DNA from: Escherichia coli
GTDB lineage: Bacteria; Pseudomonadota; Gammaproteobacteria; Enterobacterales; Enterobacteriaceae
Direction: 5' to 3' (one strand)
NCBI RefSeq assembly: GCF_003018255.1
Contig: NZ_CP027440.1
DNA length: 64,000 nt
In this document: positions 12,818-13,408 of the stretch, in pieces
Numbering within the stretch: position 1 is the first letter of the stretch
Layout of the letters: every line of letters begins with the position of its first letter
The notes under the pieces: model-generated
Database searches by the model: none
What the model saw: the letters and a program-made list of their open reading frames with translations, nothing else
Told to the model about the DNA's origin: nothing
Translations under genes and position numbers: made by a program

Positions 12818-13408
12818 TTAGTGGCAACCGCAACCGCCGTTACCTTTACCGCCGCAGCAGCCTTCGCCACCGTGTTCATGACCGTGATCGTGGCCATGAC
12901 CACCGCAGCAACCGTCGTGGTCGTGATCGTGGTGATGATCGTGCGCACCGTGAACGTGGCCATGAGCCAGTTCTTCTTCAGTCGCTTCGCGAATCGCCAC
13001 AACTTCAACGTTGAATTTCAGGTTCTGACCGGCCAGCATGTGGTTACCATCAACCACGACGTGATCGTCTTCAACCGCAGTGATTTCAACCGGTACCGGA
13101 CCCTGGTCGGTTTCAGCCAGGAAACGCATACCAACCTGCAGTTCATCAACGCCCATAAATACGTCTTTAGGAACGCGTTGAACCAGGTTTTCGTCGTACT
13201 GACCGTAAGCGTCGTTCGCGCCAACAGCGACATCAAATTTGTCGCCAACTTCGTGACCTTCCAGCGCCGTTTCCAGGCCAGAGATCAGGGAACCGTGACC
13301 ATGCAGGTAGTCCAGCGGCGCACTCACCGGAGACTCATCAACCAACACACCGTCTTCTGTACGTACCTGATAGGCCAGGCTGACCACCAGGTCTTTTGCT
13401 ACTTTCAT
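12818..13408 (-). CDS. slyD: FKBP-type peptidyl-prolyl isomerase with His/Cys-rich metal-binding tail
   Basis: 196-aa MKVAKDLVVSLAYQVRTEDGVLVDESP... ending ...HGHDHGHEHGGEGCCGGKGNGGCGCH. Confidence 0.95.
   Translation of the reverse strand: MKVAKDLVVSLAYQVRTEDGVLVDESPVSAPLDYLHGHGSLISGLETALEGHEVGDKFDVAVGANDAYGQYDENLVQRVPKDVFMGVDELQVGMRFLAETDQGPVPVEITAVEDDHVVVDGNHMLAGQNLKFNVEVVAIREATEEELAHGHVHGAHDHHHDHDHDGCCGGHGHDHGHEHGGEGCCGGKGNGGCGCH

Follow-up and report, generated by a model that had tools for sequence, protein, structure and literature searches.

Open reading frames over the 3' end of slyD in Escherichia coli are very probably non-coding by-products of its metal-binding tail and of codon bias

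The slyD gene of Escherichia coli ends in a low-complexity stretch of histidine, glycine, and cysteine codons, over which an open reading frame (ORF) track lists long frames on both strands. The locus thereby raises the question of whether any of these frames is a gene in its own right or whether all of them follow from the way in which slyD is written. We addressed this question in a stretch of E. coli DNA of 64,000 nucleotides (the window), for which a preliminary description had attributed the overlapping frames to the slyD tail. Our reading, to which we assign a probability of about 96%, is that the overlapping ORFs are non-coding by-products of the tail sequence and of codon bias over the 3' end of slyD, and that the tail is nickel binding. 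For this reading, gene identity, frame logic, substitution pattern, and length variants are drawn from the present analysis, and the nickel function is drawn from the literature.

The gene, its tail, and its neighbours have the following positions in the window.

11518 to 12330, minus strand: fkpA.
12551 to 12769, plus strand: slyX, 72 amino acids, convergent with slyD.
12776 to 12802, both strands: predicted bidirectional intrinsic terminator, made of an A-run, a GC stem, and a T-run (inverted repeat I1).
12818 to 13408, minus strand: slyD coding sequence, 196 codons plus a TAA stop (12818 to 12820), for an FKBP-type peptidyl-prolyl isomerase (PPIase), chaperone, and Ni metallochaperone.
12821 to 12964, minus strand: C-terminal metal-binding tail, codons 149 to 196 of slyD, recognised by translation and composition.
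12950 to 12964, minus strand: HGHVH motif (His149, His151, His153) at the start of the tail, a conserved high-affinity Ni/Zn site with its role as given in PMC7055735.
13503 to 13703, minus strand: yheV.
13713 to 15518, minus strand: kefB.

The slyD product matches the Pfam family FKBP_C (PF00254; E = 1.2e-08, 35.6 bits against a cut-off of 21.1), is covered over residues 1 to 196 of 196 by the NCBIfam equivalog NF008008 (426.8 bits against a cut-off of 174), and is 100% identical over residues 1 to 196 to 2kfw_A, the PDB entry for the NMR structure of full-length E. coli SlyD. A Shine-Dalgarno (SD) sequence, AGGAG, lies upstream of the slyD ATG, and the start of slyX is likewise preceded by an SD sequence, GAGGTG; the slyX product matches Pfam SlyX (E = 5e-23) and NCBIfam NF002750 (156.5 bits). 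Gene order comparisons revealed kefB-yheV-slyD with a convergent slyX to be common to the window and to Salmonella, Citrobacter, Klebsiella, Serratia, Yersinia, and Photorhabdus. The 1-kb region was found in 5,425 of 5,426 complete E. coli genomes, with slyD and slyX annotated among the matches listed. Positions 12500 to 13500 are 98.9% identical to K-12 and 99.9% identical to strain JNE23-011. The SlyD protein is the same as that of K-12, and the slyD DNA differs from that of K-12 by 10 silent changes, 6 of which lie in the tail. The locus is E. coli slyD with the nickel-binding tail already known for its product, and neither gene nor tail is new in kind.

The C-terminal 48 residues of SlyD, HGHVHGAHDHHHDHDHDGCCGGHGHDHGHEHGGEGCCGGKGNGGCGCH, comprise 15 His, 6 Cys, 16 Gly, 5 Asp, and 2 Glu; the whole tail is composed of H, G, D, C, E, K, N, A, and V and is free of Leu, Ser, Ile, Phe, and Tyr. 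The tail sequence had been quoted correctly in the preliminary description, where the length of roughly 50 codons should read 48 and the end at position 12961 falls one codon short of 12964. The tail of E. coli SlyD, in which His, Cys, Asp, and Glu abound, is unstructured, and it has been reported that the tail binds up to 7 Ni(II) per protein, that it reversibly inhibits the PPIase, and that both hydrogenase maturation and the stimulation of nickel release from HypB require it (PMC7055735). As a step taken from this literature, the disordered tail would bind several Ni(II) ions and supply nickel to HypB during [NiFe]-hydrogenase maturation. The identity of the protein (NF008008, 100% to PDB 2kfw) together with PMC7055735 confirms the earlier view of the tail as a real metal-binding region.

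The motif at the start of the tail is widely shared, with HGH[VIAL]H present in 117 of the 120 best homologues (cluster representatives from a protein search). The tail has been described as variable among SlyDs (PMC7055735). Among the same 120 best cluster representatives, 96 have a recognisable tail (at least 75% H, C, G, D, or E), and in these 96, from Enterobacterales, the tail, measured from the HGHxH motif to the C terminus, is between 25 and 69 residues long (median, 47), in agreement with the earlier statement that tail length varies between species.

Three ORFs, here called shadow ORFs, lie over the 3' part of slyD.

12821 to 13420, plus strand: shadow ORF 1, 199 codons with a GTG start, codon-in-phase antisense to the whole of slyD; judged not to be a gene.
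12763 to 13008, minus strand: shadow ORF 2, 81 codons with a TTG start, in the +1 frame of slyD; judged not to be a gene.
12766 to 13014, plus strand: shadow ORF 3, 82 codons with a TTG start, in the antisense +2 frame; judged not to be a gene.

The first two, with products of 199 and 81 amino acids, had been named before and do exist; the third, with a product of 82 amino acids, had been missed. Over the tail, stops occur in only two of the six frames. Shadow ORF 1 and slyD share codon boundaries (12821 = 12818 + 3). The statement that the tail generates long ORFs holds within the tail but not for this antisense ORF of 600 nt, of which only 144 nt fall in the tail and the other approximately 450 nt lie outside it. 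Two separate explanations are therefore needed, one for the tail and one for the remainder of the gene.

To see why the frames stay open, we generated 20,000 synonymous recodings of SlyD, using three models of codon usage. Over tail codons 149 to 196, the sense +1, the antisense in-phase, and the antisense +2 frames were stop-free in 100% of the recodings under every model, and the other two alternative frames were open in 0 to 0.6% of them, i.e., closed in more than 99%. The window itself shows the same set of open and closed frames. The three open frames are thus forced by the amino acid sequence of the tail, whichever synonymous codon is used, and the CAC/CAT/GGC composition, which had been proposed as their cause, has to be given up in this role. 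The codons available to the tail residues are unable to make a stop in the sense +1, the in-phase antisense, or the antisense +2 frame. The tail also supplies starts, as each His codon (CAC or CAT) reads as GTG or ATG on the in-phase antisense strand; start-like codons number 15 in the first 48 antisense codons and 6 in the other 148. It is because of these His codons that an ORF finder begins the antisense ORF right beside the slyD stop.

Outside the tail, the antisense frame is open because slyD uses no TTA, CTA, or TCA, the codons that reverse-complement to antisense stops. None of the 196 codons of slyD is of this kind, against a mean of 2.1 per 100 codons in the 47 long ORFs of the window; tufA (5056 to 5967, minus strand; to the first ATG) has none in 303 codons, and fusA (6311 to 8425, minus strand) has 2 in 704, both being strongly expressed translation genes that resemble slyD in this respect. 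The lack of TTA, CTA, and TCA is usual for a strongly codon-biased, highly expressed gene. In the recodings, the antisense frame was open over the whole gene in 0.2% of cases with uniform codon usage, in 7% with the usage of the window, and in 59% with the usage of tufA, fusA, and rpsG. Shadow ORF 1 is a classic codon-in-phase "frame -1" shadow ORF arising from codon bias. How codon bias gives rise to frame -1 ORFs is reviewed by Mir et al. 2012 (PMC3454372), with citation of Merino 1994 and Silke 1997.

The in-phase antisense frames of tufA and fusA are themselves open for 303 and 528 codons, of the same kind as that of slyD and longer. At the expected position of rpsG, downstream of fusA, there is an ORF of 156 codons (8522 to 8992, minus strand). 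We take RpsG of K-12 to be longer (179 amino acids, with a different stop) and the short form, to which this ORF may be compared, to be typical of non-K-12 strains.

A different reading is that shadow ORF 1 is a real overlapping gene, whose transcript would either read through the slyX terminator or start inside it. There are reports of antisense ORFs that are translated in E. coli (PMC9927249 and PMC7457138), and shadow ORF 1 follows directly downstream of slyX and shares its frame. Moreover, no stop interrupts the in-phase antisense frame anywhere along slyD in five enterobacterial genera (Escherichia, Salmonella, Citrobacter, Klebsiella, and Serratia), which alone could look like conservation. 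However, slyD has no TTA, CTA, or TCA in any of these five, and such codons interrupt the frame in Yersinia (one TTA) and in Photorhabdus (four TTA, CTA, or TCA codons). As the frame is intact only where the count of these codons is zero, its openness across genera tracks codon usage, and, with the codon usage of highly expressed genes, openness is what the 59% of recodings given above would lead one to expect.

The pattern of substitutions bears on this reading more directly. The slyD loci of Salmonella, Citrobacter, Klebsiella, Serratia, Yersinia, and Photorhabdus were compared with the window as the reference. Over codons 1 to 148 (the body of the gene), the differences at codon positions 1, 2, and 3 number 0, 0, and 4 for K-12, 0, 2, and 32 for Salmonella, 0, 4, and 45 for Klebsiella, and 7, 7, and 52 for Serratia, so that 32 of the 34 body differences from Salmonella are at third positions. 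SlyD identity to the window over these codons is 98.6% in Salmonella, 96.6% in Klebsiella, and 91.2% in Serratia, and the corresponding identity of the antisense product is 78.4%, 71%, and 64%. The antisense product changes at essentially every synonymous substitution in slyD. The six tail differences from K-12 leave SlyD unaltered and alter the product of each of the three shadow ORFs. The slyD frame is the only one under selection.

Dual coding predicts lowered synonymous variability, and the raised variability found in the tail argues against it. Among nine E. coli alleles, 8 of 30 third positions segregate in the tail versus 8 of 148 in the body (Fisher p = 0.0013), and third-position differences from Salmonella number 22 of 48 in the tail versus 32 of 148 in the body (p = 0.0026). 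Either weaker codon selection on the codon pairs of His, Gly, Cys, and Asp or mutation driven by the repeats may underlie the raised variability.

Codon-usage scoring of the overlapping frames, which had been suggested as a check, proved to be misleading. The log-odds score (log2 per codon) works in the slyD body, where the gene frame scores +0.63 and the antisense frame +0.19, but is inverted in the tail, where the slyD frame scores +0.09 and the antisense frame +0.50, because His and Cys are rare and the Val, Thr, and Ala codons of the antisense frame are common. We therefore rejected the score as a discriminator in the tail. The slyD antisense frame scores +0.265, and none of the other antisense frames among the 47 of the window scores higher, a rank that speaks for an antisense gene.

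Signals of expression were sought for all three shadow ORFs. Neither Pfam nor NCBIfam gave a match to any of them, and their exact products, from the window and K-12 alleles alike, are absent among approximately 15 billion predicted proteins. A search of the 20 nt before each of the three starts turned up no SD-like motif, and no promoter-like site was seen upstream of them. The plus-strand shadow ORFs begin at or just after the strong predicted bidirectional terminator at 12776 to 12802, which also stands just upstream of the supposed antisense gene. The hairpin has 12 pairs (6 of them GC) and a 3-nt loop, with folding energies on the two strands of -21.2 and -19.7 kcal/mol (z = -4.1 and -4.5), and from its sequence is likely the common terminator of the convergent slyX (plus strand) and slyD (minus strand). 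In the literature library searched, no paper ties slyD to antisense or overlapping translation, and none brings together slyD, antisense, ribosome profiling, and overlapping.

Purifying selection in the shadow frame, intactness beyond that explained by codon usage, and an SD sequence or promoter were thus all sought, and none was found. Substitution phase, tail variability, and the lack of family matches and SD motifs uphold the earlier dismissal of the overlapping ORFs as spurious. We regard it as very improbable that shadow ORF 1 is a real overlapping gene, and the specific claim that this 199-codon ORF is both translated and functional as still less credible. Were it functional, slyD would be a dual-coding locus, fully embedded and codon-in-phase, that is conserved across Enterobacteriaceae as well as Serratia, and the His codons of the tail would double as antisense start codons.

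Several observations concern the region between slyD and slyX. slyX and shadow ORF 1 occupy one plus-strand frame (12551 to 13420) in which the slyX TGA (12767 to 12769) is the sole intervening stop, and the TTG start of shadow ORF 3 overlaps this TGA; the shared frame and the overlap are probably coincidence. Two of the shadow ORFs run through the hairpin at 12776 to 12802. A match to the small RNA STnc40 at 12775 to 12838 (minus strand) covers the terminator hairpin and was rejected, at 28.5 bits against a gathering threshold of 45; the family has no match to the Salmonella slyD locus itself. Weak Rfam matches to the speF leader and to Xoo2 (E > 0.3) were rejected as well. The slyD-slyX spacer is 187 to 197 nt long in Salmonella and Citrobacter versus 48 nt in E. 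coli, i.e., approximately 140 nt longer. The extra sequence is a structured element of approximately 125 nt (positions 994 to 1118 of the Salmonella locus, L004, and 1000 to 1124 of the Citrobacter locus, L005) that is absent from the window. It matches Rfam V_AS5 below threshold, with 36.9 bits in Salmonella and 29.1 in Citrobacter against a gathering threshold of 96, and its sequence presumably resembles the ERIC/IRU intergenic repeat.

For shadow ORF 2, on the slyD strand, one can conceive of a programmed frameshift outlet, at which ribosomes slipping on the repetitive codons of the tail would yield a SlyD isoform of 214 amino acids with a Thr/Val/Ala-rich C terminus. The +1 frame is open from within slyD to 55 nt past the slyD stop, running through the terminator, and proteins of exactly this form and length are found in public collections. 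These 214-amino-acid entries (P0012, P0046, P0072, and P0106) end in the +1-frame peptide that is the product of shadow ORF 2, a peptide seen only as the C terminus of such frameshifted SlyD entries. However, they leave the SlyD frame at differing points in the tail, and most of them, nearly all in fact, come from single, low-copy contigs of metagenome or run assemblies. Further against a programmed outlet, every silent slyD polymorphism alters the +1 product, neither a slippery heptamer nor a stimulatory structure was seen, and the open +1 frame is itself forced by the amino acids of the tail. We consider a programmed frameshift extremely unlikely. The 214-amino-acid entries are probably indel errors or sporadic mutations, which would not be called as full proteins if the +1 frame were closed.

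Such entries are not isolated, as 21 of the 120 closest cluster representatives have aberrant tails that are frameshifted, read through, or chimeric. P0039 and P0061 are two different fusions of SlyD to CobW_C via a His-rich stretch. In the case of P0039 (272 amino acids), the metagenome contig (ENA NODE_1944, 8,359 nt, 2.4x coverage; L010, 2217 to 3035) has an enterobacterial kefB-yheV-slyD segment joined, inside the His-rich tail, to the CobW_C gene, beyond which come a DUF1980 gene, pth, and mfd. This contig is an assembly chimera joined at His-codon repeats. Database artefacts concentrate in the tail, where indels yield plausible-looking "proteins" of 214 amino acids because the +1 frame is open.

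Comparison of tail length across strains had also been suggested, and junction-specific searches for tail variants in 5,426 complete E. coli genomes showed the length to be almost fixed in this species, with rare variants of three kinds.

Deletion of 39 nt: SlyD of 183 amino acids (WP_023063096.1), in 3 complete genomes.
Duplication of 15 nt: SlyD of 201 amino acids, in 1 complete genome.
Deletion of 6 nt: SlyD of 194 amino acids, in 0 complete genomes; found on draft contigs.

The 39-nt deletion and the 15-nt duplication together account for 4 of the 5,426 complete genomes, and the 6-nt deletion has no exact match among complete E. coli genomes, the best matches being gapped at 93.4% identity. 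The deletions and the duplication lie at repeats, two of which are placed as follows.

12883 to 12893: first copy of an 11-nt direct repeat, CGTGATCGTGG (CCACGATCACG on the slyD strand), repeat family D1, 39-nt spacing.
12922 to 12932: second copy of the 11-nt direct repeat, inside an imperfect tandem array (GTCGTG/ATCGTG)n at 12914 to 12943.

The 39-nt deletion falls between the two copies of CCACGATCACG that are 39 nt apart, the 15-nt duplication is a tandem copy of CACCACGATCACGAC and maps to the array at 12914 to 12943, and the 6-nt deletion drops one GGTTGC unit. All three changes are multiples of three and occur at direct or tandem repeats. From the indel junctions, the natural inference is that they arose when strands slipped and mispaired at the repeats, and that selection then kept those in the slyD frame; the short, imperfect repeats that encode the tail would occasionally slip and so give rise to rare in-frame length variants.

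In-frame indels at direct repeats might also be expected if the tail repeats were a contingency locus, in which length changes driven by slippage are selected to tune nickel capacity between strains. The spread of tail lengths between genera, 25 to 69 residues, would fit such a locus, as would the presence of the 39-nt deletion in three complete genomes whose alleles differ by 2 to 3 nt in slyD, one of them an O157:H7 genome with full-length relatives. Against it, the variants are very rare (the 4 complete genomes above, and none for the 6-nt deletion), and the repeats are short and imperfect, from which low slippage rates are expected. A contingency locus is therefore very unlikely, and occasional slippage filtered by the slyD frame is the reading that we retain.

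The biological importance of these results is small, as SlyD and its nickel tail are textbook knowledge and shadow ORFs due to codon bias have been explained since the 1990s. Their bearing is on annotation. Low-complexity metal-binding tails force frames open and seed start codons, so that ORF tracks always flag them; codon-usage scoring is unable to resolve such tails and may favour the wrong strand, and the phase of substitutions can resolve them.

Among known systems, the closest is E. coli SlyD itself (UniProt P0A9K9; PDB 2kfw, full length, and 2k8i, residues 1 to 165), with the same sequence of 196 amino acids including the tail, the same neighbours (fkpA, slyX, yheV, and kefB), and no difference at the protein level. 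Antisense overlapping genes with experimental support have been described in E. coli, namely, laoB (PMC5810103) and three in EDL933 (PMC9927249). As with the slyD antisense ORF, each is a long ORF embedded antisense in an annotated gene. In contrast to the slyD antisense ORF, which failed the tests of selection, signals, and conservation, laoB and the EDL933 genes come with expression evidence, phenotypes, or signatures of selection.

The better parallel is to the known frame -1 shadow ORFs (Merino et al. 1994; Silke 1997; Mir et al. 2012, PMC3454372), which are in phase with the gene and arise where TTA, CTA, and TCA are avoided, as here. The slyD case differs from them in that the first quarter of its antisense frame is open for a second reason, since in a tail that contains neither Leu nor Ser the stops are impossible, and in that the His codons add a dense run of GTG and ATG start-like codons. 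The tail itself belongs with the His-rich nickel-storage sequences, such as the tail of Helicobacter pylori SlyD, the tail of Klebsiella aerogenes UreE, the His-rich stretches of HypB, and Hpn. These are likewise of low complexity and rich in His, Cys, Asp, and Glu; like the E. coli SlyD tail, they bind several Ni(II) ions and differ in length between species. What sets the SlyD tail apart from this group is that it extends an FKBP-IF chaperone, that nickel release from HypB requires it, and that in Enterobacterales it has a conserved end of the GCGCH type.
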